A stretch of 64,000 nucleotides of DNA from Paraspadella gotoi (lineage: Eukaryota; Animalia; Chaetognatha): NCBI GenBank assembly GCA_051294375.1, contig CM119271.1:118721-182720 (forward strand), given 5' to 3'. A program made the translations under genes and the position numbers. The notes under the pieces were generated by a model, which saw only the letters and a program-made list of their open reading frames with translations, searched no databases and was not told the DNA's origin. How positions within the stretch are numbered: the first letter of the stretch is position 1; every line of letters starts with the position of its first letter. This document shows positions 1,041-59,440 of the stretch, piece by piece.

Positions 1041-1907
1041 ATATGAGTCACATTTACTTATTATCTTTTTGCTTTCACGATCTTGTTAGTCCTGCAATGT
1101 TACTTATTTTAACCCATAATTACTCGAATTAATCATAATTGAATTAATAGATGAAAAGAAAGTGTGTGAAGAAGCTAGATATAAAGTTTTGATGGAATTG
1201 TGCCAGTGTAAATGAGTTTTAATGGAAAAACATAAGTCACATTTACTTGAATCTTTTTTACTTATGATTACTATTAAATGTTTTAATTAATTAATTAATT
1301 AATTAATTAATTTGAAAAAATGATACAATTTAAAAAAATTATGCAAGTTGAAAAAATTATGCAATTTGAAAAAAATATGCAAGTTGAAAAAAAATATGCA
1401 AGTTGAAAAAAATATGCAAGTTGAAAAAATTATGCAAGTTGAAGAAATTATGCAAGTTGAAGAAATTATGCAAGTTAAAAAATTAATGCAAGTTGAAAAA
1501 GATGCGCAAGTTGAAAAAAATATGCAAGTTGAAAAAATATGCAAGTTGAAAAAAATATGCAAGTTGAAAAAATATGCAAGTTGAAAAATTATGCAAGTTG
1601 AAAGAATTATGCAAGTTAAAAAAATTATTCAAGTTGAAAAATGATGCGAATTGTAAAAATGATGTAAATTGAAAAATGATGCAAGTTAAAAAAAATGATA
1701 CAATTGTAAAAATGATGTAAATTGAAAAAATGATGAGTTGAAAAAATTATGTGCGTGAAAAAATTCTGCGAGTTGAAAAAATGATGCGAGTTAAAAAAAT
1801 GATGCAAGTTAAAAAAATTGAACAAATAATTGTGATTTATCATCTGATTAGCAGATTACCGCTTAATTATTGGTAGGCAGATCCGACATTGTTTGCTCAA
1901 ACTTGTT
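1041..1907 (+). mobile_element. HINE family B, 3' part containing an 18-19 bp minisatellite
   Basis: Ends in GGCAGATCCGACATTGTTTGCTCAAACTTGTT, a terminus repeated at 20276 and, reversed, at about 22677, 37047, 38380, 50081 and 55456. Confidence 0.6.
1320..1820. repeat. Minisatellite, unit ~AAAAAATTATGCAAGTTG
   Basis: More than 20 visible tandem units; related arrays at 19735-20125 and 37455-37780. Confidence 0.9.
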
Positions 1908-1915
1908 ATTATAGA

Positions 1916-1957
1916 GACGAACATGTTTTGGCTGATGATTTGAGCCTTCATCAGCAT
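1916..1957 (-). ncRNA. Degenerate minimal type I hammerhead ribozyme in a Penelope-like tail
   Basis: Minus strand reads GATG-CTGATGA-A-GGCT..AGCC-AAAA-CATGTT-CGTC; the GAAA box is mutated to AAAA. Confidence 0.6.
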
Positions 1958-3399
1958 CAAAGTTTTTGTGAATTACTCACAAATTTTCTACAAAAGACGG
2001 AGAGGGAGAGAGAGAGAGAGAAAAAGAGAAAAAAGTTTCCAACACAGAGTTTAGAAAGGACAGTGGTCAATGGTGAGAATAGGCTAAGGGTAAGGACAGA
2101 TAGATTTTAGTTTAGAAAAGAAGTGAAATTGTCAATTTGAGAGAGAGAGAGACAGAGAAAATAATACATTATTTAATGTACAACAAATAAAAAGGTTTTT
2201 GTATACTGAAATTTAGACATTAACTGTTAGCTAATAATAAATAAATAATTGGAGAAAAGAAAAGAAAGAAATACATTGGGTGAGGGATAGCAAGGTAATT
2301 AGTAAAGTGAAAGGTTAAGAAAGAGCTCAAAATGAGCTGGCCCCCTTGGCTTGTGGCAAATGAGAGGCTGGGACGATGAGGCCGGTTCATTGGCGTGTCA
2401 TTGGCTGAGAGGACAGTTCGACCGAGCAATGCTCGGCGAGCATGTCAATGCTGGGGATTAGGTAAATGTTTCTTTGTCCTGATACGCCTGCCGGCTTCCC
2501 TCTTCTCGCCTGCTGGCGAGGTGGGTGGGTGACAGGAGTGGTGGACGTTTTCGCGACGCCACAAGGCGTCCGTGAGTCGGTCGAGGCTGTCCTGGTTTTG
2601 TTTAGAGAGCCCCAACGACATTTCTCTCAGCAAGCTGAGAGTTGATGGATCGGCTTCGAGTGATGTCGAGGTGCCTTGTGACGTAATAAAAAAATGTGGC
2701 GACAAGGTGGCCGCCGCGCGGGTTTGGCAGCCTGAGGGGTTCTTCCTTGCCCGTGATGTGGAGGGTGAAGGCGCCGTTGGAAAGGGGGCGCACGCGATAC
2801 ATCAGAGCAGAGAGGGAGGAGACGTGTATCACAGTCGAGAGGGTTCTCCAGTTCTTCCTTGAGGTCGCGGGCGTCGACATTGAGGGAGGTGCTGATTGCG
2901 GTGTTGTATACAAGCTCCTCATTCGGCTCAGGTGGTGCGTTGGGTCGAGTTGGTTGCGACGGCGGAGGTTCGGGTGAGTGGGGTGAGGAGGATGGAGGTG
3001 ACGCTGGTGGCCCCGCAGAGCGGTGGGGGCTGACGGGGTAGTCAGTGATGCCGGCTGGTGGCCCGGCGAGGTGCTTTTGAGATGGCAGCGGTCTGGGCTG
3101 AAGAGGAGGTTGTGGAGAAGGTGTCAGTGAGTCCCTTGATGACGGTGGAGGGCTGGCGCAAGGTGGTGTTGGAGAAGGGGCCACCCTGGGGCCGTTTCCG
3201 CTGTTGGCGTCATCGTCAACCGGAAGTGGGTTGAATTGGATGAGGATTGTGTCTTGAGGGAGGCTCTCAGCTGCAACGGCCTTTGCATTGTCTTTGGTCG
3301 ACCCCACTTCTTTTGGGCCTTCTTCAGCCGTTCGAGCTCTGCGGTCGTAACTATGAGTTAATGTGCGGAGGTATGCATTGGGCGTATGAGGGAGACTTG

Positions 3400-3750
3400 A
3401 CTCATTAGCGATCTGAAAATTTGGAGAGTTTGGTTCAATTTTTCTCCATAAGTCCTAACAATTTTGCAGCCTGATGGCACCGTGAAGTCCTCATCCAGCA
3501 TTTTGATGCAGATGCCGGACATCTCGGCGAGTAGTTTGAGTTTGGGATGTCCTCGGTTCCAGTCCTTCGCCGAGATTGTTCGGATGAAGGTGTCCACGTT
3601 TTTTGTTTTTAGCATTCCATATAGGCGTCTCGCGTTTGCTTGACGGTCAGTGAATTTCTCCGCACAAATTCAAAAAACGTTTTTCGAAAAATTTTTTGAC
3701 GCTCAGTGCGGCGGCAACAAGGGCACCCAGAGAAACCCGGGACATACGCT
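3400..3750 (-). pseudogene. Putative OTU-like cysteine protease domain remnant (frameshifted)
   Basis: VPGFSGC/LVAAALS...FRKTFFEFVRRN...VDTFIRTISAKDWNRGHPKLKLLAEMSGICIKM...RTYGE...LQIF parallels the OTU pattern (VPGDGNCLFRA...R..V.Y..N...Y...M....WGG..EL.AL..L..V.I...FG...I.L). Confidence 0.4.
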
Positions 3751-3829
3751 CCTGTGCAGTCAAACCCCGTCGGCCAGAAGGGGGTGTCGAGCAGCATGAT
3801 TTGTCCCTGGTTCGTGGGTGAGGAAATAT

Positions 3830-4040
3830 GAGGGTTGTTTTCACTTTTTACTAGTACGATCTCCTCGGGATGGCACTCTTGGCGGATCTTGGTGACCCAG
3901 CAGAGGACGTTTGTCGGTAGGACCTGTTGCTTATCATGTTGCAGGTCCATGATGCGTTTAAAGTCTGTGATTAGCGAAACTCTTTTGCCACAGATGTCTC
4001 CATTAAATTCCCTGACCATCATATTGAAAGCTAAAGTGTT
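3830..4040 (-). pseudogene. C-terminal half of Ty3/Gypsy-type RNase H
   Basis: TLAFNMMVREFNGDICGKRVSLITDFKRIMDL...LCWVTKIRQECHPEEIVLVKSENN matches the LA...KHF..YL.G+KF.L.TDHKPL...RW...EY..EI.Y.KG.EN consensus. Confidence 0.65.
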
Positions 4041-4443
4041 AGAGGGTGATTGTTGTGGGCGATGCCAACGGGCGCCGGCCAGGCTTGAGAAGCACAAGAC
4101 CCTCTAATGTGTAGACCACAATGTCAGTTAACCACACGGCGGCACAGTCGACCACAAGGTTATAGTATCTGTGAATATGAATACACAAGAGAACGGGGGA
4201 CGCCAACTAGATTAGGACTCACACTCTTACACATACTTTCTATGATAATAAACACACGATGCTCACAGGGCTGAAAGGGAAACAATAATATAAATAAACA
4301 TGAATCACTTGATTCATGTTTATTTATATTATTGTTTGACAATGATTAATAATAATATGCATCGGAGTCTTTGAGATTGTCCACGATATTGTCTCCGACA
4401 TTTTTCCCTCTCTTCTACGATCAAGCGACCCGCTCAATCCAAC

Positions 4444-5490
4444 TTAGTGAGCAAAACGTACGCAAAATTCGCAGATTAAGCACGCCGCGATGGCGCGATG
4501 GCGAAGTGCATTAGACGATGGCATTTCCTCGCCAAGAAAGTTCAATCCATGATTACAGAAGGCCTCGCCCGTTACCTTGATGGAAATCTCATCCATCGTT
4601 TTGTCCCAGCCGTTGCTGATACAGACATCTTCTGCGTCGACCCACCTTCTCGGCACCCAAGAGAGGTTTCGGCGGAAAAATTCGAGGAGCCGCGTTCTTC
4701 TAAACAGAAATAATTGGCGCGGATGCGATTCTTTGAGGATTTTGCCGATTTCCCTGGAGAATTTGGCGTGAATTTTGGGAGCAAAGTGAAAAATCCTCTC
4801 GTCGCAAACGAAAGTAAGGAAGTTGACCCGGGTCTTCTCCAAACCGGGGAGCAGCAAATGATAAACGACGCAGAAGTCTTTGGATCTCATAATTGTAGGG
4901 CGAAATCTTTGAAGAATGGTCTTATCTGACAACATTTTTCCGTGCAGACTGCCATCTCTCATCAAGGAGGGCAAGTCATGCAAGATAGAGTTTAAAGGCG
5001 ACCGGCAACGCAGGAAGAAGGCGTCATACGGTGCAGGTGTAAAGTCGCAACCCAAAAAACCGGCAAGGTCCATCAAGAAAGCCGCGAGAACGGAATGGGA
5101 GGCGGCGATTCGCCTCGCGCAAACTTTGAATAGCCTTTCGTTCCCTGTTGCAATTATATTACATGCCTTGTAAACATGCTGTTCCGCTTCTCTCCGCAAG
5201 AAAGACTCAATAAGGACGTCGGCTCGGGACTCGAAGACGATGTCGTAATAAATTTCGGGAAGCGCAATCCCATGAGCCTCACGACACGTACGGACGAATC
5301 TCCCGATGCTGTAGGGAGAGAACTTTTCTTTAAACTCGTTGATCTTGTCGAATCCAACGAAAAGGTCGGTCAAGCGCAGCTTCCGGATGATTGCATCCTC
5401 GTTTTCATAGTTCGATAACATGAAATCGGTGATGGCCACTATCTGATTGGAATGAAATATTTTTTGCAGATATCTTGAGAGTGTCAGCAC
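4444..5490 (-). CDS. Uncharacterised 348-codon open segment (3' part of a ~530-codon decayed ORF starting near 6035)
   Basis: Longest non-repetitive ORF in the window. The same frame continues upstream past a single TAA (MLTFFSGRSLKDF...CSITS*IHPTVLTL). C-terminal CLICEFC. No family recognised. Confidence 0.55.
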   Translation of the reverse strand: MLTLSRYLQKIFHSNQIVAITDFMLSNYENEDAIIRKLRLTDLFVGFDKINEFKEKFSPYSIGRFVRTCREAHGIALPEIYYDIVFESRADVLIESFLRREAEQHVYKACNIIATGNERLFKVCARRIAASHSVLAAFLMDLAGFLGCDFTPAPYDAFFLRCRSPLNSILHDLPSLMRDGSLHGKMLSDKTILQRFRPTIMRSKDFCVVYHLLLPGLEKTRVNFLTFVCDERIFHFAPKIHAKFSREIGKILKESHPRQLFLFRRTRLLEFFRRNLSWVPRRWVDAEDVCISNGWDKTMDEISIKVTGEAFCNHGLNFLGEEMPSSNALRHRAIAACLICEFCVRFAH

Positions 5491-6049
5491 GGTCGGATGA
5501 ATTTAAGAGGTAATCGAGCAAAACACCCGGTGGACAGGAAATTTTTTATAAGGGCCCTGCAGCACACCCGTACTGAAAACTTCCTTCTCGAGGGACGATG
5601 CTACAAAGTCTTTCAAACTACGGCCAGAGAAGAACGTCAACATGGCGCGCGCGAGCGAACGGACCTTTTTCGGCCAAGATCCTAGTCCAATCCTCGATCG
5701 TGTCCGAAACCGAGGCTGACTTAATCTTCCTTAAGTATTGCAGTCTTATTGAAGTCTTTTTTTCTTTATAAACTTTAGCTCATGAACGAATTCGTGACAT
5801 AGGCGCATCGGACGCGGTGAAACCGGAGCCGGAATTGGAAGAACAAAATCGCGCGGAGCGAGAGTCTCGCCGACGACGACGCGACGGTCAGCAGTCGGTG
5901 TTGGTTCACTTGGAATGTTTTGCGCATACTCTGCGACAGATAAAGATGCTGGTTCTGGTCTGAACATGTTCTCCGACACTTCCTGGTCCTCAGTCCCCTC
6001 GTCTTCGTCAGAGGAGGAGAGGAGAACAAAATCCATAGTCGGACGGTCT

Positions 6050-6340
6050 GAACAATGTGTGTTTGAGTCGATACTCATCAAGGAAGGATTTTGAGTGGAT
6101 ATTCCACGCCGTCCGCTGTGGCCATGATGAGGCTGCCCATGGCACTAGTGCTGGCGTCAGTATACAGTATTCACCATTTTTAATTTTAGCATCGTTTAAA
6201 AAGTTTAGGCCCAGAGTTGACTTAATTTCTTTTATTAACATATTTAGGCTTTCGCGATGAGCTTCAGTGAATTCAAAGTTTTTCCTATCTAGTAGGGTGA
6301 GGGCATGGAGCGGCTGTGCCAGGTAAGAGAACTGGTGCAC
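6050..6340 (-). pseudogene. RT connection region and N-terminal half of Ty3/Gypsy RNase H
   Basis: FSYLAQPLHALT...FEFTEAHRESLNMLIKEI...; LYTDASTSAMGSLIMA in an adjacent frame; IHSKSF. Confidence 0.8.
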
Positions 6341-6429
6341 AAAGGCTCAAATTATAAGCACCACCCTGCAAAATTCCCTAATTCCTCATTCGCCCCACCA
6401 ATCTTGTATACTAGATGGGTGGGTGGGTA

Positions 6430-6747
6430 GGTAAAACACCGGTAATAATTCAGGGAGGCAAGAAGCGCCCGCAGATCCTTCTGGGTTTTTAGCTCTTTCA
6501 ACTTGATCTCTGCTTGTTCCATTTTTTCACGTTGGGGGTTCAACTTGTCTTTGGAAATACTGTACCCTAGGATTTTGATGTCGTCTTTGAGGACGACGTT
6601 TTCCCTCCGACAGATTGACAGAAATTCGCGGAGCCTGACAGCTATCTCCTCAGGGTCCTTGGCCATGAGGATGAGGTCGTCGACATAAATGAACGATTTG
6701 ACATCCCTGCCAAGCTCCGCAAATATTTCATCGAGGATGGACTGGAG
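6430..6747 (-). pseudogene. Reverse transcriptase C-terminal part with catalytic YVDD
   Basis: LQSILDEIFAELGRDVKSFIYVDDLILMAKD...IKILGYSIS...KDLRALLASLNYYRCF. Confidence 0.9.
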
Positions 6748-8855
6748 TAGAGTTCCGATAACCGTTAAAAGTTAACGGTTATTAACGGTTAATTTTAACT
6801 TAACCGTTAATATATTTATTTTAACGGTTAAATTCGGTTAATTTTCAAATACGATTTTTGTTATTATTTGTTAGGAAATCTTTGATTTTTTAAAATAAAA
6901 GTTTTTTTTTCGTCCTCTTTTATTTCTCTTTTTCCTTTCAACTAATTTTATGCATTTACATCTTAGAGACAAAGTTTGAAATAATTGGCAATAACAATTT
7001 ATTTTCAAGATGAAAACGTACATGTTTCGGCTTTTTTACTAGCCTTCTTCAGCATCAATTTAGTTTGTGAAAATATTAGACAGATTTTGTGTAGAAGAAG
7101 GGGAGAGAGAGAGAGAGGGCAAAGTTTCTCTGTCTCTCTCTTTCTCTCTCTCTCCCCATCTTCTACACAAAATCTGTCTAATAATTTCACAAACTAAATT
7201 GACGCTGAAAAAGGCGAAAAAAAGCCGAAACATGTACGTTTTCATCTTGAAAATAAATTGTTGTTGCCAATTATTTAAAACTCTGTCTCTAATCTCTAAT
7301 CAAAATGAAAGAAAGGATTACATAACACAATGCATTTACATCAAAGAATATTTTGAAATATAATATATATGCAAATACATACATTTTTTTACAAATTAAA
7401 TTCTTACATGAAAAACTTTTTATTCTATTTTATTATTAAAAAAATAAATAATTCTTCGTTTTCTCACTTTTTCTTTTCCTCTTTAAAACTAACAAAGAAG
7501 CAAATGAAATAAAACCGAATGAATGAAAAAAATTAATAAAAAAATTATTATAACAAATTTAAGAATTATTAATAGAAGGAATGAATCTTTAAAAAGACAT
7601 TAAGGCTAACTAAAAATATCCTTCAATGATGATATACTTTTTAATAAAATTAAAAAAAATATTTATTAATCCATAAATCTTTTGATCAATAGCTCAATCA
7701 ATAAACCATTCAATCAATAAACTAATATTCATATTTTATATTTATAATTATGGTCATGGTTTATGAAAGACTAACAACTAGAAAAATAATGAGGAAGAGA
7801 AATAGAGAAAGAAAAAGAGAAAACAAAAGAGAGAAAGAAAGAACGAGAAAACTTAATATAAAATTAGAATTACATTGTGCTTTTTCTTTCTTTGACTTTA
7901 TCATGATGTATTATTTGATTATCATGGGTTGTTACGAAATAACTATCTATATATCACGAAGAAATCCAGCTTCTCCACTTTTTCCCGATGCTCTTTTGTC
8001 TTTTTTACTGACGCAAGAATTTCCAGCTTTCCAGCGATTACAGAGACATCTTCTATTTTAGACTTTTGTTATATATATACTTAAGTACAGATTCCGTGGC
8101 GGATTCTGATTGGTTCATCGGATTTCGATAGATTTTAATTACAATTTATCGATGTGAACGATCTGATCTGTCATTCTTGCACTTTCAGTTCTCTGAAAAT
8201 CTCGGAATCTTTAGTTTTAAGAAACTATTTGGTAATTGCTGGATTGGTGGACTTTCCTGTGAGAGAAGCAACTTTTTGTTACTATTTTGGCTTCAGAAAC
8301 AAGTAAGAAAGATTCTTTAAACTTTATATATATATATTTGCTGAGTTTGTATTAAATGTTTTGTTATTCTTTGCCCAGGACTTCTAACTTCACTTCACCT
8401 TCACTTTAACTTCAACTATGTCCTGGGCTTCGCCTTCGGCCGAGACTTTGTCGTCCTCATCTATTGAGCATCATAGACCGGCGCCATCGTCTCCTCTGCG
8501 CCATTACGCCACAAATACCAACGCTTTATTTGGCGTAGAGTTAGCCCGGGAAAGTTAGCAAGTCAATGAAACCACTCTCCGAACTTAGTTCAAAACATGG
8601 GTAATTTGAAAATAGTTTGCTCAAACCAAATTTTCTTTTACTCACTATAATGTGTATATCATCTATCTGAAATAGAGGATTAAGAAGATTCAGGAGCCAG
8701 AGTTAAAGAGAAAATTACCATTTAATACTTTAGTTTGTTTTAAATATTAGTATTTTAAATTTAAAGTTAAATTATAAAATTAGCCGATTTTAACGGTTAA
8801 CCGTTAAAAATGTTAGTTTTAACGGTTAAGCGAATTTCCTGAAAAATTAACTCTA
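6748..8855. mobile_element. Non-autonomous hAT-type DNA transposon inserted in the RT
   Basis: TAGAGTT...AACTCTA termini, perfect 8-bp TSD GACTGGAG (6740-6747 / 8856-8863), subterminal TAACGGTTA repeats at both ends; the RT frame rejoins across it. Confidence 0.9.
6962..7320. mobile_element. Fold-back Penelope-like tail pair with two opposed hammerheads (7015-7056 minus, 7201-7240 plus)
   Basis: Long imperfect inverted repeat. Cores are CTGAAGA-AGGCT..AGCC-GAAACATGTA-CGTT and GACG-CTGAAAA-AGGC..GCC-GAAACATGTA-CGTT. Confidence 0.75.
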
Positions 8856-8863
8856 GACTGGAG

Positions 8864-9440
8864 GACATTTACTGTTTACGCCGCCAATTGGTAATTTGTT
8901 CATTTCCCAGTTGTCCGGCTTCTGCGAAGGCGGTGATGGGCTTGCAGCAGTCCTTGTAGTTTACTTGGTAAAAACAGGCCAGGAAGTCAACTGAGCATTG
9001 GAGCTCGTGAGGTTTGAATTCCTCCAATATTGCTGATATTGTCTGTGGTTTGGTGGCATAAGTTGAAATATTGTCATTTACCGCGGACAGTTCACAGATG
9101 AGGCGCCATTGTTTTGTGAAGGTCTCGTCCATCTTATCTTGCCCTTGGTTTACATGGTTTGGTTTCTTTATGAGGAAAGCATTTGAGTAGGCTTCGCCTG
9201 ATGTTCTGGAAACAACGCTGGTTTTTTGTAAACTTCAAGGTATCTTTCTAAGGCGGCCTTCTTGATCGGGCCCTGGTTGACAAAATGCGGTTTGGGCAAG
9301 TCTTCCATGGTGAAACCCAGGTCTACCTTGTAATTTAAAAACCCTTCTTTGCAGTCGTTGAAGGAATCGCCGAAAACATCACGAAATTCCCATACAGCAT
9401 CCCAGACGATGGGGGCCTTGTCGGTGAGGGTCGGGTCCAC
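8864..9440 (-). pseudogene. Reverse transcriptase N-terminal part (Ty3/Gypsy-like), frameshifted
   Basis: VWEFRDVF...; WRLICELSAVND...KPQTISAILEEF...SVDFLACFYQV...KPITAF...LPIGGVNS. Confidence 0.85.
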
Positions 9441-9499
9441 CTCCTTAAGGGTTTGAGAAACTCCTCTTTGTCGCGGTCGTCATGTTTCTGTCTGCGTCT

Positions 9500-10179
9500 G
9501 TCACGTGCTTACTGCACCGCTTTTAACTCAGCTTCTGAGGTGAGTGTTTGAAGGAGAGATAACCCATAGTTCATGCGGTGAGCCGGGATCCGTGGTGGCG
9601 GTCCTGATGATGACGTAGCGATCCTCATCTTCATTTGGGGATACAAAATGTTGCCTAGGGCCGCTCACATCAGTGACAGAGGCGGGAGCAGTGGCATGGG
9701 TAATGGTACTGGGGCCGCCCGTGATGAGGGTCCTGATATCATCCTTGAGCTCCGCAAAGGCGATGTAAAATTTTTAGTTGACGGAGTCGGCGACGTCATT
9801 TAACATGGAGACGACATTGTCGACACGGGCAGTCTGCTGGCGCAAGAGCTCTCTCACGCCGGCAACTTCCCTCGCAGTTTCGTTGATGATTCGGAGGGTC
9901 GTGGAAAGCAGCGGTGACGTCCTTGGGGGACATGCTTTTCTTGCTTTTGAGAGATTCCTGCAGACGGGGCGGCTGGTTGATGAAGACGTCATCGAGACCC
10001 ATGATGCCCGGGGGCGGCGCCGCCGTCGCTTTGCCCGGAGGTGGCGGCGCCATCAATTTGCCTGCGGTTTCAGCATCGGCGGTTGGTGAGCTGGCAGCGA
10101 CATTATCAATGGCGGCGTCGGTGTCGGATGGCGCGGCGTTACTGTTTTGTGAGAGGTGCTTCCGAACGAGATCCATCAT
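9500..10179 (-). pseudogene. Ala/Pro-rich then coiled-coil ORF remnant upstream of the RT (gag-like position)
   Basis: Overlapping ORFs 9796-10179 and 9774-9992 (LRIINETAREVAGVRELLRQQTARVDNVVSMLNDVADSV). No CCHC knuckle or D(S/T)G protease motif seen. Confidence 0.45.
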
Positions 10180-10565
10180 GTCCTCACGTTAGGGGAACAC
10201 AGAGCGAGTGGGACTGCATGTGGTTGGCGTGGCGAGTGGAGGCGAGGGTGGCGTCGCAATCCAGTGGTGTCCACCACATAAACGATTTACCAAGAATTCA
10301 AGCAATTCGTGAAAAGAATGTTTTAATTCAATTTTACAATAAAATAGCGATTTTCGTGATAAATAAACATTTGTATTTTATTCGCACAAGTCCCAACGCT
10401 CCTCAGATCGCGTACAGTCCGAATGCCCCTCTCCTTTTGCTCCTCTTTCTCAGGCGCAAGTCCTTCTCCTCCTGTTCTATTGCATTGTCCTTTGCTCCTC
10501 CCAGATTCGATCGTGCGAGAGCGTTTGCTGTCGATCGTTGGTTTTCGTTGTTGTTGTTGTCGATG

Positions 10566-10602
<37 letters not shown>

Positions 10603-10648
10603 ATGATATATATATATGCCCTCATAACAATTCCCCGGATTCACTCAC

Positions 10649-13600
10649 CGCTGAGAGTTTTCCGTCGTATCTCAAGGTTCTGTTGAAATCTTCGAAAGCT
10701 TTGGCTAAACCCAATTCTGGATACTCGTTTAGATTTCCCATCTGTGGTAAAAAACGGGAACAGATGTTTTAGAGATGTTTCTTTTCTTTATAGATTTATT
10801 TAATCAGTTATTCCTTTTTTGCTGTCATATCTAAAGGGGGATGAGAGAGAAAAAACTAACTTTAAATTCCCAAGTTGTAAAACTTTAAAGATAAGACGGT
10901 TTTGTAGTGATGTAATATCACCAATTGGATACGACTGTCCCTTCCATCATCGCCGTAATAGCGCACTGGGCTAACGCTAAATGTTGGGGCTATCCACCCT
11001 CACAGAGAGGCATGGCGACCCTCTCTCCTCTCGGTCACTTCACTGATGAGCCCTTCCTGAACATGTTCAGCCTCTTAGATATTATGATTTTTCATTAATG
11101 ACTTTCTAACAGAAATGATGTGTGATATCTATTAGAAAACTAGGACAGATAGTAATCTAACCTTGTGTTGTATAGATGCTCCCTCTATTTCCAGAAGACA
11201 ACACTGACTTCCCCTTCCCAAATTGAATTATTAGATAAATAAAACATTTTTAAGAAAGAAAGCAATACATTATATTTGATTAAATAATAAGATTAAATAC
11301 TAAATCCTTCATAAAATATAAAAATAGAAAATAGTGAAACAAGTAATTTGCAAATTTTCATGCAACACCATTCATTCCCGCTTAACCACAGCGCTCCCAA
11401 AGCGCCAGACCCGCCTGTGGCTAATCAAGCCAAAGAGTCAGAAGTGACCCGTGGTCACTGACCACAGCCCCATGGGAGTACAGAAGGCATCTCCCCCCTC
11501 CTTGTACCACTTGAGGGGTGTGACCCCTTGGGGGGGTATGTGTAGTGATGTAATATCACTACCCATTGGATGCGACTGATCCGCACTGGGTTAACGCTTA
11601 ATCTCCGAACCCAATGGTTTCGGCTTCTAGCCCTGGTCCGTACAGTCCTTGAAAAAAAAGAGTGACGGGCCAGTTAAACTACCGGTAGCAAGCTTACCGC
11701 CGGATCCTCAGTTCCGGAAAGCGAGGCAACTGACGGAAAAATCTCCCAGATCAACTGGTCACAATAAGTGTGGATCTGCACTCACAGAGAGGCAATTCAG
11801 TTTTGTACATAATTTAGCCTGCAAAATCTCCCTTAATTATCATTATCTGATCGTATAGGTTAATATAAAACTCCTTAAATAGTAATAAATCAATTACTAT
11901 CTAGGAAAAAAGTATATAACATTTTTAATAAAGGATATCTATTCGAAAACTTATTTGATTTAAAAAAAATCAGAATGTTTTCGGATCTACATTGAATTTC
12001 CTTTAGGTAGGTTCCATCCATTTTTTTTGTAGGTCAAATCGTTTAGAAGTTACAGGTCAAAAAATATTGTTACTTCAAATAAAAAATGGCAAAAAAATTA
12101 TATTTAGTTTTCCTTAATTTTTAGTATTTAGTTATTTGTCTTTATTTTTAATACAGTTCGTTATTTTTTTTGTTTTTAAATTTGGCAATGCTAAAGGCCT
12201 TGTACCTTTTTTTAGTTAAAAAAAGTTTTATTATACCTTTTAGAAAAGTGGGAAAGACACGCAACATCAACATCGGGTCTGAAAAGAATTGCGTTAATGA
12301 TGTGGAAAAACATTTCACTGTCATAAATCAATTTGCTGTATGAGAGCATGCCCAGACAAATGCAGGCAGTAGCCGATTCTGAGGAAGAGTATACCAAATA
12401 TTGAGAATGTTTTACCCCTGTTTTGTATACTTTTTATTGAATAAATGAATTATGTTATATACTTTTTTCCTAGAGAGTAATAAAAAGATATCTAAGAAAT
12501 TTTTTTAATTTATAAATTCACCCCAATTTTTTTTTTAAAATGAAATCGCGAGACCTTGAAGGTGCTCCTGAGCGCGTCGAGTCGCCCGCCGATCGGAGGA
12601 CCCGCCTTCAGCGCTCCGTCGAGATGATCGTGGATTTTGCGGAGATGCGCGTGGAAGGCGCGGACGCGGCGGCGCAGCGCCAAGTATTCCTCGTCGATGA
12701 AGTCGATCACGTCCAGCTGCGGAGGAGGAGGAGGAGCAATGAGCAGCAGCAAAATAACTGCATAACTTTACAAACCAAATGACAAAATAGCAATAATATA
12801 AATATAGAAAACAGCTGCTTTAATAGCATTATCGTTTAACTTAGTCAGAGGCATGGATAATTCTCATCAATTCTATATGATATCACTAATTTTAACTATG
12901 GGTAATTTCACCCAAAAGGTGATGGGCCAAGCCCGGAAGTACTGCAATACATGATTGAGGAGGAGACCGTGCAAGCACTGAGCGCTCCTCCGATGCTCAA
13001 TAATCAGTTTAATATTCAGGGCCCGCAGTGCGGACCGTATCAGATATTAAGCTGATAATAAACACTTCCTATATCCTTATAAAATCGAAAAATTTCAAAA
13101 TAGGCTTTTCTTAATTTTGATTGCAGATTTGAATTCCTTGTCAAAAGTTGATAAAAGAAAATACAAATCATTTTTATGATGGGATAATCCTTTCTTTTCG
13201 TTGTTTTTAGTTTTAGAGAAAGCAAAGTATTTATGAAATTGTTAACAACGATTTTTATTAGGAGACGGTGTGGCGGTATATTCACAACCGCCTCACGTCA
13301 ACCATCCTTCAGCCAAATCCATTGGCTCAGAGGGGGAACACACCATCCCAGGCGTAGTGTTCAATCCACAGTTCTAATGACTTCCCTCTGCGTTGGCAAG
13401 CGAGACCGTCCTAGGGTAACCGCGCCAGTGACTGGAGGCGTCACTGAGGGTCGGAAGCCCCCAAAGCCAACGGTGAGATGCCCCATCCCAATGGGCATCA
13501 CAGGCAACCCGGCTGTTGCCATAACGGACATGTTTTCGGCTTGTTGGATTCAAGCCTTCATCAGCATTTGACATACATTAAAAAGTTTGTATAAAAGAAG

Positions 13601-30127: not shown

Positions 30128-31232
30128 CGTTGGGTGATCTTTAATGTAATTTGGTTTTCGTTTCGTTTTTCTTTTATTTTATTTTATTTTTTTAATCTCA
30201 GACTAAAAACATTTTCTTTCGATTCAGTCCTTTTTTCGGCAGTTTTTTTTTCTTTTCAACCTATTTTTTTCCTATATTCTGTTAAGGAAACAAAGGAGTG
30301 AAATATTTAGCATCTAATTGATTTAAATCCTAAAAAACCGTTTCGTGACTTTAATCTCATTTGCATATTGCAGTATATTTTTTTTAAGATTACTGAAAAA
30401 GTATTTGGATTCTGTTTCAGAGCAGAATGATGATTCCGCCATAATTTAAAAGTAAGTATCGTTAGGATTATTTAAATCACAGTTTTGGATAACTTGTTTT
30501 TTGAACAGAAAATATATACCAAAAACAGTTGCCCCCGAACCGAGAGATTTTATAAACTACTATTTTCGAATGACGAACTCTGACTCCACGCTGGAGTTGG
30601 AGCCACGCTGATGGCCACAACTATAAAATATTATTTAAACATGTTCATAGCTGGGAACATGGAACAAGTGTGGTGTATGAGTTTCCTTCGTAAAATTGGT
30701 TCAACTAATATAAAATCATCCATTCATTTAATATGTAAGCTCTCTTGTCCTTGACTTTGGACAGGCTTTGGTGGTTTAAGGCCTCCATCACTCTTACAAG
30801 ATAATGAAGTGGCATAATATTTCAAAGAACGTTTCAATTGTATTAAAAGAACACTCCCTTAAGTATTAGACCGGGGAATACTATATTGTACTCCGCACTA
30901 GCATCAAAATACAAGGAGCGGAATTTTATTTTCCTCTCTCTTTCTCTCNNNNNNNNNNCTCTCTCTTTCTCTCTTTCTCTTTATTTTTCTCTCTCTTTCC
31001 CTCTCTCCCTTTATTTTTCTCTCTCTTTCCCTCTCTCTCTTTATTTTTCTCTCTCTTTCTCTCTCTCCCTTACATCTATTTTTTATTATTCTGCCTCAAA
31101 AATATCATCGTTGATCTGTTTTTTCTCTTCCTCCTCCTCCTCTTCTTCTTCCTCACTTCTCAGTAAGGCGCAGAAAATATTCTAAATTTAACTTTAATTA
31201 AAATTCTTAGACATCATGAATTTCCTTTCTAT

Positions 31233-32560
31233 TTAATGTTTTCTACAACGACTTTATTAGTATCAGAACGTACATGTTTCGGCTTACGTACAAGCCTTCA
31301 TCATCGGTAACATCTGGTTTGTGAATTTGTGAAATTATTTTGTGCAAAAGAAGAGAGAGAGAGAGAGAAAGGGCAAAGTTTCCAAGACAGAGATGAGAAA
31401 AGAATAGTGGTCAGATGTTTGGACAGGTTCAGTTGAGCACAGATTCTGAAAAAGAAATTAAATGGTGAAAGAGAGAGACAGAGACATATTAGAAACAATA
31501 CATTATTCAATGTACAACAAAGATAAATTCTTTAAACTAAAAGTTGATAATAAACATTTAACAGTTAACTACTATAAATTAGTGAATATGAAAATAAAAA
31601 ATGAAAGGTGAAAATTTGAGGAATATGAGTTTTGAAAAAAATTTAAGAATTAAGAAAAAGCTCAAAATGGTCTGGGCCCCCTTTGGTTGAAGCAAATGAA
31701 AGGCCTGATCGATGAGGTTGAGTCATTAACGCGTCAGTGGTTGAGAGGACAAGTCGGTTGAGCCTATTTGTGCTGGACTAGGGAGGCTTCCTTGCGGGAA
31801 GAGTCCAAGGGCTATCCGAATGTCTCTCTGGCCTGGTACGCCTGTCGACTGCCCTCTTCTCACCTGCAAGGCGGGCGGTTGTCCATTCTTGCCGCTTTCG
31901 CAACATGAGTTATGCACTCCTCCCCTTCCTCCTGCAGCCATCTTTTGGGTGGGCGCTCACACCACAGAGAGAGAGAGTGAGTTGCTGCAGGTGAAGGAGA
32001 GGCATCGTTTGCCCATTGCCTACGCAAAGGTCTCCGCCTGTTTTGTTGAGTGGATACAGGGGAATCATTGTGTGGACATGGTGGTGACGGGGCCTACACC
32101 ACCTCATTTTGAGCTCTTCCTTAATTCTTAAAAATTTTTCACTTTAACAACTATTCAAAACTCATATTCCTCAAATTTTCACCTTTCATTTTTCATTTTC
32201 ATATTCACTAATTTATAGTAGTTAACTGTTAAATGTTTATTATCACTTTTAGTTTAAAGAATTTATCTTTGTTGTAAATTGAATAATGTATTGTTTCTAA
32301 TATTTCTCTGTCTCTGTCTCTCTCTTTCACCATTTAATTTCTTTTTCAGAATCTGTCCTCAACTGAACCTGTCCAAACATTTGACCACTATTCTTTTCTC
32401 ATCTCTGTCTTGGAAACTTTGCCCTTTCTCTCTCTCTCTCTCTTCTTTTGCACAAAATAATTTCACAAATTCACAAAACAAATGTTAACGCTGATGAAGG
32501 CTTGTACGTAAGCCGAAACGTACGTTCTGATACTAATAAAGTCGTTGTAGAAAACATTAA
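31233..32560. mobile_element. Inverted Penelope-like terminal repeats (~440-bp arms) enclosing an ORF 3' remnant; hammerheads at 31267-31307 (minus, C3 mutated) and 32487-32526 (plus)
   Basis: Arms 31233-31670 and 32106-32560 are near-perfect reverse complements; part of the spacer is homologous to about 2310-2520. Confidence 0.8.
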
Positions 32561-50000: not shown

Positions 50001-53000
50001 ATTGAAATAATTTAGTTTTTTATCTTTTAAATGAGCAAGGTTTTATCCATATGTAACAAAAATTGTAAGAATATAATATAACAAGTTTGAGCAAACAATG
50101 TCGGATCTGCCCACGATCATTTTCGGTAATTAATTAATTAATTATTAATTAATTCAAGTTAATTAATTATTTAATTAATTAATAATTAATTTATTCAAGT
50201 TAATTATTTAATTAATTAGGCAATTAATTTATTAATTTGATCCGAAATGTTTGTTTTGATTGATTAATTGACTGACTAATTAATTATTGATTAATTAAAT
50301 GACTAATTGATTAATTAACTGATTAATTATTTGAAGTAAGCAGATCCGGCTAAAAATCTCATGAATGTTTATTACATTTTCTTTATCCCCGACCCACCTC
50401 AAAGTCATACTTTAACATCTTCAGGCCCCAAATCTCTCAACGTCGCTTTGCCCGTCGCCTTCATCGTCGTCGTCGCCGGTATCGTCGCCCTCTTCACGCG
50501 GGCCGCGGCGCTGCCCGAATTCGGCGGCGCCATACTCGACTGGCTGGGGCGCTCTTCAGCGGCGCCTACGGGCGAATCAATGGAACGCGCCGTCCAAGCG
50601 ACTTACCACTGGACGGCGTCTTCTCATTTCGGAGCGGCGTTTTTATTGGGAAAACACGCGGCGCCGAAAACGCCGACGCAGACCTGTCTGTTAGCGGCGT
50701 CGTTCCTGTTTACGGCGCTGAATTTTCTTATGAGCGCAACGACGACAGCGTTGAACGCTCGGTTGGCGGCGCTGGTAGGCTGGAGGCGCGGGGATGAGAT
50801 ATTTGCACCATGGTTGGTCAAGAATTCGCTCGGGTGGAGTTCGTTGGAAGGTGAATGAAAATGTGAATTATAATGATAAGAGAATAATAATAAGAATAAT
50901 ACATAATTTACCAAATGCATCGCTTTTTCTAGAAATTTAATTTTTTTCATGAACAGCCAATAAAAAACTCAATTTAATCGAAATATTTAATGCCTATACA
51001 TTATACAATAGATTAACTAGTATATGTACTACATAGTACATAATATTATGTATATACTGCATATACATTGTATAAAACTTAATGATGAAACTATTCTCAC
51101 AACCCCTTTTGCCTTGAAAACCCCGGCCTCCAATCGCCCCCTTCCCAGCGCCCCACCTCTGGTTAGGCGTACACCTCGCGACCCGCGCCGCCGCCGCCGT
51201 CTCTCTCTTAACCCTCTACGCCGAAACCATTCTCGCCGCTCTCTCCGAGGCGGCACCGACGCTGCTGGCGCCGCGTCACACAGCGCCCAAATCTGTCGTC
51301 GTCGGCGGCGTCTTTTGCGTCGCCGGCTTCGCGTTTGACGCCGGGGTGAAGGCGTTGGCTGCGTGGGTCGGAGACGAATTCGATTTTCTCTACAATGAAT
51401 TCAGTTTTCTTTATTATTCGATCCTCAAATCTTTATTCGGAGTTTTTCTTTATTTCGTCCTCTTGGCGGCGCTGCCAGTTTGCGTCTCAAAAGTGGCGTC
51501 GCCTGTTAATGGGGATTTGTTGACGTTCGTGGCGCGGCAAGGCGGAGGAAGAGCGGAGAGTGGAGAGCGGTGGGCGATGAGGTAAGACGTGATTAAGAAA
51601 TTATTCATTACTAAGTACACGGATCTCAAATGGGAGTGAAATGAAAAGATTTGTTATTACCCTTAGGCTTATCTGACTCAATATGATTGATATTTAATCA
51701 TTTCATTTGTTAGAAAATATATAGAAAAATTTATAGAAAATTCCTATATAACAAATTGATAAAAATTTATATCATAACCACTGGTGTGCCTGCCTTCCAG
51801 CAGCTTTTTTTGCAACATTTCTCCCCTCTTATTTGATAGTTCTATTTTATTCTCATTGTGAAAAAAATTTTGCCGAATATTTAATTTTTTTTACATTGAT
51901 TAATTCATATAATGTCTTGAGAGCATATAAAAAAATTCTTATAAATATATTTTATGGTTTAATGAGGCAACAAGCTGTTGCCAGATCCTTGTTTCCATTT
52001 TTTTTTCAATAATGTAATTTTTATCGAGCCTTGACCGGCGAAGCCGGGTCAGGCTCTATAATGTTTTAGGGTTGCTTCTTTGTGACGTAGTCGTCGTCGT
52101 CGTCGTCGTCCGTCACGCTGTTTTGTTATATAAAAACTACTACGCTTTTATAGGTTTGGCTGTGACTTACCGTTTTTTTTTAAATAAAAATTATTATGAA
52201 TTATGATAAAGTTTTACAAAAGTGTGCAATCATAGTAAGTTAAAAAATTTAGATATGGCTTCTCATTTTGAAATAGCTTTGATATTTTCTTATTACATTT
52301 GGAATTAAATATTTTTTGTTTGAATTTCCACTTCATTATGATTTACTGCAATATGCAAATGAGATTATAGTACTCATTATAATATCCAAATTAGTATATA
52401 GAAATGCTTTAATCTAATTTACATATTGCAGTATATAATATTGAAGATGAAATTCAAAAATTTTTTTTAAATTTCTAATAAAAATGGGAACTCAAAGGAT
52501 TTTTTTAATGAGAAGCTATATCTTAATTTTAATACAAATAAAAATAAAATCTTTTACAAGCTGCGATTGGAAAAAATTGGAAAAATTTCCAATTGTAAAC
52601 CATTGTAACATTTTTTGCCTTTCTTTTATTTCTTTAAATTATATATATATATTTGTTTCTCTTTCTCTCTCTCTCTCTCTGATCGATCTCATGCCTGATC
52701 GTTCGTTTTTTGAAAAATTCTGATTATTTTTTTCCTTCTAAAAACTTTTATTATTGCCATTTATTCCGCGCTTTTTTCACAATACAAAATCCCAAATTTA
52801 CATCCGAGATTCTCTTGGATTTTTTTTTATAAGTTAACTATCCATGGTATATCCTTTCTTTTCGTTGCTGTATAGAGATTTACAAGGAATTTTGAATTGT
52901 TACAACGATTTTTTTATTATTAATAAGTTGCAGACATGTTTCGACTCAGAGATTTTCGAGTCTTAATCATCTTGAGACACTTTCCTACCCGCACACAAAA

Positions 53001-56500: not shown

Positions 56501-59440
56501 CTATGATTGGAAAAAATTGTAACAATTTTCAATTGTAAACAATTGTAACATTTTTTTCTTTCTTTTTAATTTTATTTCTTTAAATTATATATATATTTTT
56601 CTTCCTATTTTTGTCAGTTGCTGCCTTTTCTGAACCCTTTAAAAACGAGTTCAGCCTCTGCAGTGACTGTACAGCTGCCTTCCAGCGGCTGTCCAGCTTT
56701 CTCTCTCTCTTTCTCTGTCTGCCTTTCTCTGTCTGCCTCTCTCTGTCTCTCTCACTCTCTGTCTCTCTCTTTCTCTCTGTACGATCTCTTGCGTNNNNNN
56801 NNNNNNNNNNNNNNNNNNNGATCGTTTTTTGAAAAATTTTTTTTTATTTTTTCCTTTTAAAAACTTTTATTATCGCCATTTATTCCGCGCTTTTTTCTCA
56901 ATGCAAAATCCCAAATTTACATCCGAGATTTCGTGGATTTATTCTCTTTCTTTCTCTCTCTCTTTCACTCATACACGCATTTGTTTGTTTATTTTATGAT
57001 GAATGATTCATTGCGTCAATGAATGACTATCATCGCATCAATGAATAACTATCATCGTATCAATGAATGATTATCATCACATCAATGAATGACTATCATC
57101 GCATCAATCATTTGGTTATTAACACATCAATCATTTGGTTATCATCACATCGATCATTTGGTTATCATCACATCAATTATTGGTTATCAACATTATCATC
57201 GCATCAATATTTGGTTATCATCGCATCAATCATTTGGTTATCATCGCATCAATCCTATGGTTATCATCGCATCAATATTTGGTTATCATTGAAGGTAGGC
57301 TCGATCCTATTCTTTTAAGATTTTATTTATTATTATTCAACTATTCATCCCTCCTTACAAAATGATAAAACAGCTTTCAATCAATACGAGTTTAGTTTAT
57401 GAGCACCCAGAGACCACCGATACTCCTCAATACTCTCTATCAATACTCAAGTATCAAGTAATTTCAATCACTTTTCGAACCAATCAGATGTTTCCACGCC
57501 TACCTCCTACTCATTTTCCTCTTCCTCCTCGCATTCCACTATCTCCTTCCGATCTCCATCTACGACGACGTCTCCGCCATCGCATTCTGGCGCCACCATT
57601 GGACGCATCCACGTTTTTTCGTCCCTCTGCGAGCGTCGCCGGCGTAATCTTGATCGTGCTCGTCGGCGCCATCGTCGCCCTCTGTCGGGAGGGGGCGTGT
57701 CCGAAGGTGGGGTGGAACGAGGGGCGGGCGCCTTTGGCGGACGTGGGAGTGGAGGAGGAGAAAGAGGACGAGAAGGAAACGCAGAACTTCGCTTAGCTTG
57801 GAAGTTTAAATGTTTGGCAAAGCTACATTTCTTGTCTACTTTATTTATAATTTACATACAGAAGGCTTCATATTATAAAATGAGGTACCTGTTTTTTGTG
57901 ATCAGAATCTTTTCCCACCAAACTACCCGATCGAATTTCATGAAATTTTAATATATAGTCTTAATGACGATATAAATAGAACTATCCAGGCGAATTTTAA
58001 TATTCAACCCCTTTAGTAGCATCAGTACATTGACGTCTTAAACATATAAAAATATTTTAGAACAAATTAATAAATTTTCAATAATTAAGCATTATTTTTC
58101 CAAGTTTTCCAATTATTCCAAATCTGACTTGAACAGCTGATGTTTATGAAGCTGAAAATTAAAGTAACCTAATTTTTTTGAGGAAATAAATACGTTTTTG
58201 TGGAAGAATAAACGTCTGTGCAACTCTTAAAAACAAAAATAATAAAAAAAATTTTGACCATTTTCTGGCCCAATGGGGTCTCCCGGGGGGCCAATATTTC
58301 GGCTCAGGGGTCAAATATTGAAATTCGCCTCGATAGTTCTATTTATATTCACATAGGGATCATTCATACCAAATTTCAAAGAATTTGGTCCTGTAGTTTT
58401 CTCGGAACGTGTTCTGGTCACAAAAAAACAGGTACCTCATTTTATAATATGAAGCCTGTTGACGGCCATTAGTTTAAAGTTAGTTATAATATTATAAATT
58501 AGTTATAATATGAAGCCTGTTGACGGCCATTAGTTTTAAAGTGGTTTTCAAATATGTAAAAAGTATGACTTGACTAAATTGCCTGTAATGAAACAAAAGC
58601 TAAGATTTTTTTCCGACGTATTAGATATGAAGAAATATTTTTTTTCTTTCTGCACATTCTGTATTTTAAACTTCTAAAGCCTGTAAGTTTGCCAGTATAG
58701 AATGTAGTTGATCGTACAGCAAATTAGTATTTAATTAGATTTATTTTCATATTGCATTTTTTTCCGTAAATAAACTTTTTATTTGGTATTTATTAAGATT
58801 GTCCTGTAGCGTACGAAATGATGAGTGAAGACGAAAGGATATCGTAGACCACATAATATATTTTCCATGAGGAAAAGGCAAACGTACAAAAGGATCGAAT
58901 ATCGACGAATGCGAAAATCTCTATCGGCGAGAGAGGAAGAGGATAGAGAAGAGGAGGAAGAGGAGAATAGGAGAGAGGAAGATCGAGAGAGACCGCCGGA
59001 TACTACAGTCCTAAATTTTTTCAAAATTCAAAATTCCAAGTTTGATTGTACATAATTGAGGATGAGAGTTTTATTTATTATCTTCTCACAGCAGAACAAC
59101 GGAGGATAAACAATTAAAAAGTCATAAAGAAAGATTATGATAGTAACGAAGAATACAAAGATAGCAGATGGGGATGAGGTGGGGGGGAGTGGGGGAGGAA
59201 AAGAGAGAGATAAAAAACAAACTACTCATCCTCGAACTTAAATGTTACAATCAACTGGAATTTTGAATTTTGAAAAAACAAATTTTTTTTTTTTTTTTAT
59301 TTTAGGGACCTTCGTGTATCCGGCGGTCTCTCTCCCGAGAATTTCTTGGGTGACCTCGTCTCCTATCTCCTCTTTCCTCCTTGACTTTTATCTCTATCCT
59401 CTTCCTCATCAATCGCCGGAAGAGGATTTCTTTTTTTTTT

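Follow-up and report, generated by a model that had tools for sequence, protein, structure and literature searches.

The window analysed here, a 64,000-nucleotide stretch of the Paraspadella gotoi genome (contig CM119271.1), carries on its minus strand a retroelement (1908-10629) whose parts run in the order LTR-like leader, ORF1, reverse transcriptase (RT), RNase H (RH), OTU-like segment, proline-rich linker, a reading-frame end HFELFL and a hammerhead. This order, read from the letters alone in a first-pass annotation, is borne out by the coordinates of the parts; stops and frameshifts break all coding portions. The leader (10270..10629, minus strand) starts with TG at 10629, features a TA-rich tract and AATAAA, lacks a terminal CA and has no second copy elsewhere in the window beyond microsatellite matches. 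An 18-mer starting with TGG (10259..10276, minus strand) resembles a primer-binding site (PBS), its complement apparently being spaced like a tRNA 3′ end; ARAGORN finds 0 tRNA genes in the window. Next comes the broken ORF1 (9645..10179, minus strand), proline-rich and then coiled-coil-like by its sequence, which matches no gag or protease family.

The RT and RH are preserved as four pieces on the minus strand. A basic, helical segment of ~80 aa and the N-terminal half of the RT, both broken (8864..9644), are colinear with the relative P0008 (residues 68-242; alignment score 417). The palm with its YVDD motif (6687-6676) and the start of the thumb (6431..6747) match Pfam RVT_1 (E=0.0007), this piece being 50% identical to P0003. 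The end of the thumb and the broken N-terminal half of RH, with YTDAS at 6164-6150, occupy 6059..6344, and the C-terminal half of RH (3761..4036), with ITDF near 3975, is 46% identical to P0004. The catalytic motifs of both enzymes are kept in the relatives, and 8 of the 12 listed differences between this RH and the relative family fall at third codon positions.

Directly after RH lies the OTU-like domain (3361..3760, minus strand), which along 69 aa shares 43% identity with P0007 (E 1e-13). The same adjacency, uninterrupted by an integrase, is displayed by P0004, P0006 and P0007 from ENA and JGI contigs (P0006 and P0007 are 85% alike), i.e., by 3/3 relatives reaching that far. Because the OTU-like domain follows RH both here and in three metagenome proteins, we regard RT-RH-OTU as a real family, its order recurring, at the level of sequence, in independent contigs. 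The OTU label itself has weak support: the Pfam OTU match is limited to P0007 and falls below the cut-off (E=0.0012; 19.8 bits against 23.3; profile 26-96 of 128), the window's own segment giving none. An Atlas OTU cluster at 0.85 is a lead only, and the structure predictions (pLDDT 38.6 for the OTU-like domain and 37.7) were too poor for a search. The catalytic Cys motif of OTU enzymes is not visible in P0004, P0006 or P0007, and the domain is likely catalytically dead, perhaps a binding module for ubiquitin or RNA. We found no description of an RT-RNase H-OTU architecture in an LTR-type element in the full-text literature searched, outside which lie most subscription journals and Repbase.

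Three other elements have jumped into this copy; two had been recognized from the start and are bridged by relative contigs, but the third, a small one, had been overlooked. Insert 1 (6748..8863; 2.1 kb) is a non-coding element with terminal inverted repeats (6748-8855; ends TAGAGTT/AACTCTA) and an 8-bp target duplication, which we take to be hAT-like; relative contigs join 6690 to 8870 in 4/4 runs, and within it sits an inverted pair of hammerhead tails (6963-7292). Insert 2 (4037..6056, minus strand) comprises the 3′ portion of a different LTR element: a 352-aa ORF (4447-5502; no family match and no Atlas match at or above 0.9), a purine tract (4416-4401) and a 364-bp TG...CA LTR (4400-4037); relative contigs bridge it from 3964 to 6100 across 149 letters, again in 4/4 runs, and contig depth is high at 4058-4465. 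The overlooked insert (6345..6430; ~85 bp) splits the RT thumb: the P0003 alignment ends at 6430 and restarts at 6331, where loose contig ends also lie, and the bin 6134-6439 has very high summed contig depth.

The 3′ end of the element is a Penelope-type tail (1908..2557, minus strand) defined by aligned tail copies, with the HFELFL end (2340-2314), a pyrimidine-rich 3′ UTR, a (CT)n tract and the hammerhead (1958-1916). The terminal repeat, earlier put at ~400 bp, measures ~620-650 bp and includes the HFELFL reading-frame end; 1903-2513 matches 31254-31867 at 67.6%. The aligned copies confirm a Penelope-type minimal hammerhead, and the core reported earlier is present, but one conserved position (1929), kept in the other nine of the ten aligned window copies, is altered in this one. 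Rfam returns no hammerhead match at 1958-1916; 88.9% of cells are paired across ten copies versus 15-38% when the pattern is slid, and 2 of 12 pairs changed on both sides. As monomers, 7/7 hammerheads fold no better than shuffles (z -1.7 to 0.1), as expected of minimal hammerheads of the dimer type.

At least ten hammerheads of this kind occur across the 64-kb window, insert 1 alone carrying two, so that chance landings of the tail are common in it. The 0.6-kb tail family is very abundant, its summed contig depth lying 2-3 orders above single copy. The comparison copy (31254..32560) is a 5′-truncated tail with an inverted partial copy (arms 92% identical), and its sequence upstream of 31904 is unlike the element; with the pair at 6963-7292, it shows that the family inserts as truncated and inverted copies. 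High-copy tail contigs leave the element copy at 2525 and continue as the 31254 copy (loose ends X3, X8), so that the sequence upstream of the high-copy tail differs from the element's; at the protein level, the element upstream of 2525 shows no significant homology to the 31254 copy (31/60 shuffles as high). Contig depth rises steeply towards the element's 3′ end, and the hammerhead end at 1916 is followed by 9 nt and then another dispersed repeat, with no telomeric repeats.

Between the OTU-like domain and the tail lie the proline-rich linker (2861..3360, minus strand), parts of which (3206-3271 and ~3025-3069) share a relative contig with the OTU piece (joints 3271 to 3463 and 3069 to 3206, at the same contig depth of 910.8), and an unassigned coding-like segment (2565..2860, minus strand) with no family match, of which 2565-2776 is common to the relative family at ~80% identity. 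The comparisons do not support 2300-2860 as a second OTU repeat (10/40 and 20/40 shuffles as high), as the C-terminal GPY/F domain of an integrase (lowest pairwise p=0.024, reached in 1/5 and in another register) or as a GIY-YIG or recombinase domain (no match).

The likely junction between the RT family and the tail is at 2557..2565, where two homology limits abut. In 3/4 listed runs (X6, X7, X8) the relative family piece begins at 2565, the contigs running 506, 198 and 506 nt past that point, whereas the 31254 tail can be matched as far as 2557 (1/100 shuffles as high) with no extension beyond. The complete list of 11 joints has 0 leading from 2565-2776 into the tail, although pieces of 22-26 nt from 2290-2525 are detected on other contigs. 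The piece 2565-2776, however, lies at the 80% matching threshold, and a tail that had diverged might go unseen on these contigs. Two of them stop 506 nt beyond 2565, roughly the distance at which a tail would run into the high-copy (CT)n region, although an LTR start would also fit such an end. GC content and reading sense show no break at 2560, the frame from 2860 to HFELFL has only three stops, and the junction bears no recognizable target duplication or clean mark of 5′ truncation.

Relative contigs were aligned to the window from 8/9 listed runs in 3 studies, the best of which may be the window's own source; none of the runs listed is an RNA data set matching the element. The contig depth of 2565-2776 tracks that of the RT/RH family in 8/8 runs (ratio 0.77-1.33), as compared with 0.66-1.05 for the physically linked OTU piece (7 runs) and 0.29-1.35 for an unrelated nested repeat (7 runs), a single-repeat control that replaced an earlier depth correlation with a shared denominator. 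The match in depth and divergence suggests that the family reaches within 10 nt of the tail. The relative family, put at 3-13 copies, exceeds this copy in length: upstream of 2776, 556 nt or more pass without a listed joint (248 nt here); downstream of the OTU piece, one contig extends 1543 nt before any joint to 2565-2776 is listed (640 nt here); and ~2.2 and 3.2 kb precede the RT (1.15 kb here). Given this extra length in the linker and upstream of the RT, intact members may hold an integrase, for which we set about even odds.

The claim of the first-pass annotation that this copy lacks an integrase, protease and second LTR holds up, none being detectable by HMM or repeat comparison. HMMs from Gypsy pols recover the RT (iE 3e-11) and RH (iE 0.002) in the six frames of 1900-10700, and those for integrase and protease (built from 7 and 4 pols) match nothing there; the RH control indicates limited sensitivity, so that a decayed, diverged integrase could escape detection. 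No HHCC/DDE integrase remnant was found anywhere in the copy, and no long direct repeat links the leader to the 3′ end, where neither a second LTR nor a polypurine tract is seen; no target duplication or upstream tail copy frames the element. In the element copy there is likewise no match to a tyrosine recombinase, methyltransferase, capsid or movement protein, and no inverted or split terminal repeats were found; a GIY-YIG endonuclease has no Pfam, PHROGs or PDB match in this decayed region of low sensitivity. The 147 residues before the RT of P0008 match no protease, and neither a protease nor an integrase is detected in the 80-147 residues preceding the RT, beyond which the relatives extend by a further 1-2 kb on the 5′ side. 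Possible decayed protease motifs can be picked out by eye ~180-200 residues before the RT core, in both the copy and P0008, but residues 1-70 of P0008 show no alignment with the window (14/40 shuffles as high).

The affinities of the RT-RH module lie closest to Gypsy. The thumb and RH of the family fit the Gypsy-type Pfam models PF17917 (P0004 and P0006 at E 7e-14 and 8e-15) and PF17919, and P0003 reaches 102 bits against a Gypsy RT HMM. The best PDB match is Ty3 RT/RH (62 bits), followed by foamy virus (57) and a polyprotein that is presumably caulimovirus-type (51); PDB, Pfam and nearest proteins all place the RT outside the Penelope/telomerase clade. The family RT shares only 21-30% identity with the nearest long proteins that the search returned, 9/10 of which are RT-RH pols with integrase, and no protein among 5360 long candidates joins the family RT to an integrase, a weak test. 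The relative search used E<=1e-10, outside which weaker mid-length relatives fall. Locus scans found no relative in viral contigs (P0003, A5, A3 and the hammerhead pattern), metagenome contigs (A3, A5) or prokaryote genomes (A3). In a 12-row RT tree with no named references (Gypsy-only branch 60/81), the family, on a stem of 4.5 changes per site, is not placed inside the sampled Gypsy rows; it is a candidate deep lineage lying between the RTs of Gypsy, DIRS and pararetroviruses.

Taken together, we favor, at a probability of roughly 0.55, the reading that the element is the decayed remnant of a Gypsy-like RT-RH-OTU family that has diverged deeply, the 3′ end of this copy having been replaced by a Penelope-type tail. 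The family would replicate in the LTR manner, using its own RT and RH and tRNA priming at the PBS-like site behind the leader; the leader has LTR-like and PBS-like features for which a hammerhead-ended element would presumably have no need. A 5′-truncated tail likely joined at ~2560 in place of the element's own 3′ end, probably set there by a Penelope-like RT and endonuclease acting in trans rather than by the element's RT, and this insertion along with an internal deletion probably removed the second LTR, and perhaps an integrase. The DAM-LTRs provide a precedent for an additional domain between RT and integrase, likewise placed behind RH (bioRxiv 10.64898/2026.05.21.726589).

The first-pass annotation had offered two alternatives, a hybrid retroelement class or a Gypsy module captured and mobilized by Penelope machinery. 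We consider it unlikely that the element represents a new class with an LTR-type RT/RH and a pseudo-OTU, one that has neither protease nor integrase nor a pair of LTRs, makes an RNA ending in a Penelope hammerhead and spreads as 5′-truncated and inverted copies, its tail being among the commonest repeats of this genome. The fuller version, in which the hammerhead is the element's own end and its own RT/RH copies in a Penelope-like, 5′-truncating manner, the tails being truncated products, is doubtful. It would account for the equally diverged family piece that tracks RT/RH depth to within 10 nt of the tail, the steeper depth towards the 3′ end, the very divergent RT with its long stem and the OTU directly after RH in all three relatives. 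Against it, family and tail are not connected by any contig, the high-copy tail has different sequence upstream, and no endonuclease was found. LTR elements with a tRNA-type PBS require terminal redundancy, which a single hammerhead end does not offer. As for the recurrence of its junctions, RH-OTU returns in three proteins but the hammerhead junction is seen at this locus only, and a locus-unique tail junction fits the evidence better than a hybrid class.

That the family belongs with the tyrosine-recombinase (DIRS-like) elements, or is a pararetrovirus-like replicon that does not integrate, with a DDE integrase absent for other reasons and the tail a local accident, strikes us as a slender prospect. 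DIRS elements lack both a protease and a DDE integrase, as does this copy so far as seen; a HIN-LE motif in the family RH also occurs in the DIRS-like match P0017, the Ty3, foamy and caulimovirus PDB scores are similar, and the tree leaves the family outside the sampled Gypsy rows. However, P0017 matches neither PF17917 nor PF17919, both of which the family fits, P0003 scores well with the Gypsy RT HMM, the join with P0017 in the tree is flagged as a long-branch meeting, and recombinase, methyltransferase, capsid and movement protein have no match. Least probable of all is capture in trans, whereby a tail landed in a family ancestor and Penelope machinery amplified the RT-RH-OTU-tail chimera as cargo: pLTRs alone mobilize intervening host genes in trans in Adineta (PMC3846280), and tail copies of Penelope-like inverted structure abound in the window, but the third-position bias in RH indicates purifying selection, unlike cargo, no upstream tail copy or target duplication surrounds the element and no second chimeric locus was seen.

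Among known systems, Ty3/Gypsy (Metaviridae) elements share the YxDD LTR-type RT, the Gypsy-type thumb and RH, the LTR-like leader, the PBS-like site and the best PDB match; the family differs in its OTU-like domain directly after RH and in its low identity to the nearest long pols, and this copy in having no detected protease, integrase, second LTR or 3′ polypurine tract. With Penelope-like elements, which have minimal hammerheads in their pseudo-LTRs (PMC4209133, PMC8557442), the tail shares a type I minimal hammerhead whose helix I is short, helix III palindromic and helix II preceded by a bulged base, as well as 5′-truncated and inverted copies, whereas the element's RT is outside their clade and no GIY-YIG was found. 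Terminons share a coiled-coil ORF, accessory ORFs and a 3′-terminal hammerhead but use (PMC6431247) an Athena (Penelope-type) RT and bear telomeric repeats after the hammerhead, neither of which occurs here. Plant LTR and animal non-LTR retrozymes furnish known hammerhead-Gypsy/Penelope links (bioRxiv 10.64898/2026.07.22.740005; PMC4918200); they are non-coding, and LTR retrozymes have type III hammerheads in both LTRs, unlike the element. DIRS/YR elements (PMC8557442) share an LTR-type RT/RH without protease or DDE integrase, from which the element differs in its Gypsy-type RH, its want of a recombinase or methyltransferase match and its lack of inverted or split repeats.

Were the hammerhead truly the family's own end, the rule that an LTR-type RT goes with a DDE integrase or tyrosine recombinase would be broken, and the element would test the role of hammerheads in Penelope elements. 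On the favored reading of a Gypsy-like family with a replaced 3′ end, the family represents a lineage of LTR-type RTs remote from those sequences that our searches reached, with an OTU-like domain fused behind RH, and offers an example of a retroelement with a probable ubiquitin-pathway decoy.

The element at 1908..10629 carries, on the minus strand of the window, all the parts listed in the first-pass annotation (leader, ORF1, RT, RNase H, OTU-like domain, Pro-rich linker and hammerhead tail), with every coding part interrupted by stops and frameshifts. Its RT, RNase H and OTU-like parts represent a real family: protein searches recovered eight fragments from ENA and JGI contigs (two matches in one search, one of 58 candidates in another, one cluster member, and five of 7525 at E<=1e-10, one of these being the query itself). 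The fragment P0003 is an unbroken RT-RNase H with 41-58% identity to the window pieces, in which Pfam recognizes RVT_1, RT_RNaseH and RT_RNaseH_2; the relatives retain YVDD and the four acidic RNase H positions. Three fragments (P0004, P0006, P0007) run from the RNase H end directly into the counterpart of window segment 3760-3361, placing the RNase H-OTU junction beyond this locus. P0007 is 43% identical to that segment over 69 residues and matches Pfam OTU at E=0.0012, under the cut-off of that model (profile positions 26-96 of 128); an OTU cluster (18% of members) that the Atlas gives at 0.85 serves as a lead only. The OTU-like domain is likely a pseudo-enzyme, because no Cys motif is seen at the position that carries it in OTU proteases. 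Third codon positions hold 8 of the 12 listed RNase H differences between the window copy and the organism's relative family; therefore, the two diverged under selection. Further copies are visible solely as proteins from public contigs and as contig pieces, the latter from a single organism (eight of its nine listed runs).

Three insertions break what is a single RT-RNase H module. Both nested inserts originally described exist, and a third of ~85 bp (6345-6430) has to be added. Short inverted ends and an 8-bp target duplication mark insert 1 (6748-8855), across which relative contigs connect 6690 to 8870 in 4/4 runs. It is a 2.1-kb non-coding TIR element composed of several high-copy repeats, among them, at 6963-7292, two hammerhead tails in fold-back arrangement whose arms are 88% identical. 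Insert 2 (4037 to ~6056, minus strand) represents the 3' portion of a different LTR element and includes a purine tract (4416-4401, minus strand) and a high-copy 364-bp TG...CA LTR; relative contigs connect 3964 to 6100 across it, with 149 letters between, likewise in 4/4 runs. Its LTR holds a perfect 28-bp palindrome (4280-4337), and a 352-aa unbroken ORF (4447-5502), with a broken acidic ORF upstream, lies just before the purine tract and LTR; family, Atlas and fold searches with the 352-aa ORF found no match. The surrounding window is AT-rich eukaryotic DNA crowded with repeats. It also displays GC-rich ORFs with hydrophobic stretches (50340-51585, 57299-57951 and 60695-61285, the latter two near-identical duplicates) and a U2 snRNA-like sequence (12917-13103, minus strand; 66.7 bits) whose 5' stem matches poorly and which may be a pseudogene.

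The tail (1908..2557) ends in a hammerhead (core 1958-1916) of a family with at least ten copies in the window, eight found by pattern and two from BLAST matches. In the 10-copy alignment 88.9% of cells are paired, versus 15-38% with the partners slid, and both-side changes occur in 2 of 12 pairs (22/500 shuffles as high). Together with a design fitting the minimal Penelope type with palindromic helix III, as described in PMC4209133, this bears out the Penelope-type identification. The hammerhead at this locus is likely inactive, because one conserved core position (1929) is altered. The hammerheads, of several subfamilies, lie at 1958, 7056, 7201, 13566, 22313, 27313, 27716, 31308, 32487 and 33179. 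The tail repeat takes in the ORF end HFELFL (1903-2513 versus 31254-31867, 67.6%), and the 31254 locus, a truncated tail copy with an inverted partial copy, shares a layout that PMC8557442 describes for Penelope-like elements. Ten N (30950-30959) in a (CT)n tract beside it mark an assembly gap. Over the tail, summed contig depth exceeds single copy by two to three orders, these being sums rather than copy numbers. The longer ORFs of the window showed no noticeable Penelope RT or GIY-YIG ORF. Between 2300-2525 and 31649-31878, the two copies compared, three reading frames appear conserved by turns over ~200 nt, which may reflect overlapping ORF ends, common frameshifts or RNA-level constraint. 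A short dispersed repeat (1855-1907; at least five further copies in the window) adjoins the tail and ends sharply at 1907, where many contigs stop matching; downstream lies a degenerate tandem array of ~18-20-bp units (1300-1810).

The hammerhead end had been read as the mark either of a hybrid retroelement class or of a Gypsy module captured and mobilised by PLE machinery. The family probably extends to 2565, because a relative of 2565-2776 at ~80% has a contig depth that follows the RT/RNase H contigs in 8/8 runs (ratio 0.77-1.33; 0.29-1.35 for the single unrelated repeat used as control). A single relative contig links the OTU to the linker up to ~3025, and none of the relative contigs bridges 2776-3025. 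Beyond 2565, relative contigs go on for 198-506 nt, spanning the place where the most conserved tail blocks lie, yet no entry among the 11 listed joints ties them to the tail, though 22-26-nt pieces were detected there on other contigs; pieces were mapped at an 80% likeness threshold, which the 2565-2776 relative itself barely passes. The relative's match starts at 2565, whereas the 31254 tail is homologous only as far as 2557; two independent limits within 10 nt look like an insertion junction. High-copy tail contigs depart from the element at 2525 and continue as the 31254 copy does. We favor, at a probability of roughly 55%, a reading in which a divergent Gypsy-like RT-RNase H-OTU family member would have decayed, received three insertions and had its own 3' end supplanted by a Penelope-type tail truncated on the 5' side. 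A hybrid class that copies itself would gain from the family's reach to 2565, but with 0/11 joints to the tail we regard it as unlikely. Also unlikely is a DIRS-like or pararetrovirus-like family free of integrase.

The annotated lack of integrase and protease holds up for this copy: a six-frame scan of 1900-10700 gave no match to HMMs from seven integrases and four proteases of long pol proteins, while HMMs for RT and RNase H detected the broken domains, that of RNase H just weakly. Those proteins come from a family-profile search of 5360 candidates (10 found, 21-30% identical); nine have an integrase, and one, P0017, has DIRS-like motifs. Intact members are longer than the window copy, so the absence is established for this copy rather than for the family: upstream of the RT start, relative contigs extend for ~2.2 kb and 3.2 kb versus 1.15 kb here; upstream of 2776, they continue for at least 556 nt without a listed joint where the window gap is 248 nt; and an OTU-bearing one extends 1543 nt downstream without a listed joint to 2565-2776. 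In P0008, the 147 residues preceding the RT have no Pfam or PDB match; colinearity with the window covers 80 of these. P0003 scores 62 bits against the Ty3 RT structure, 57 against foamy virus and 51 against a third viral RT. A 12-row tree, with a family stem of 4.5 changes per site, a Gypsy-only branch at 60/81 and a long-branch warning, gives the family no firm placement. With a thumb and an RNase H that are both Gypsy-type, 'divergent Gypsy-like' describes a way of working rather than a demonstrated membership.

A chimera spread in trans by Penelope machinery has precedent in PMC3846280 and is very unlikely. In the literature searched we found no account of an LTR-type RT-RNase H-OTU element, nor of an LTR-type RT with a Penelope hammerhead at its end; the supplementary family lists of PMC8557442 or Repbase could hold a relative. 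In the review PMC6431247, the Terminon section and the other passages covered mention OTU for Helentrons only. The hybrid reading is unproven, and it is the divergent OTU-bearing lineage that deserves follow-up.
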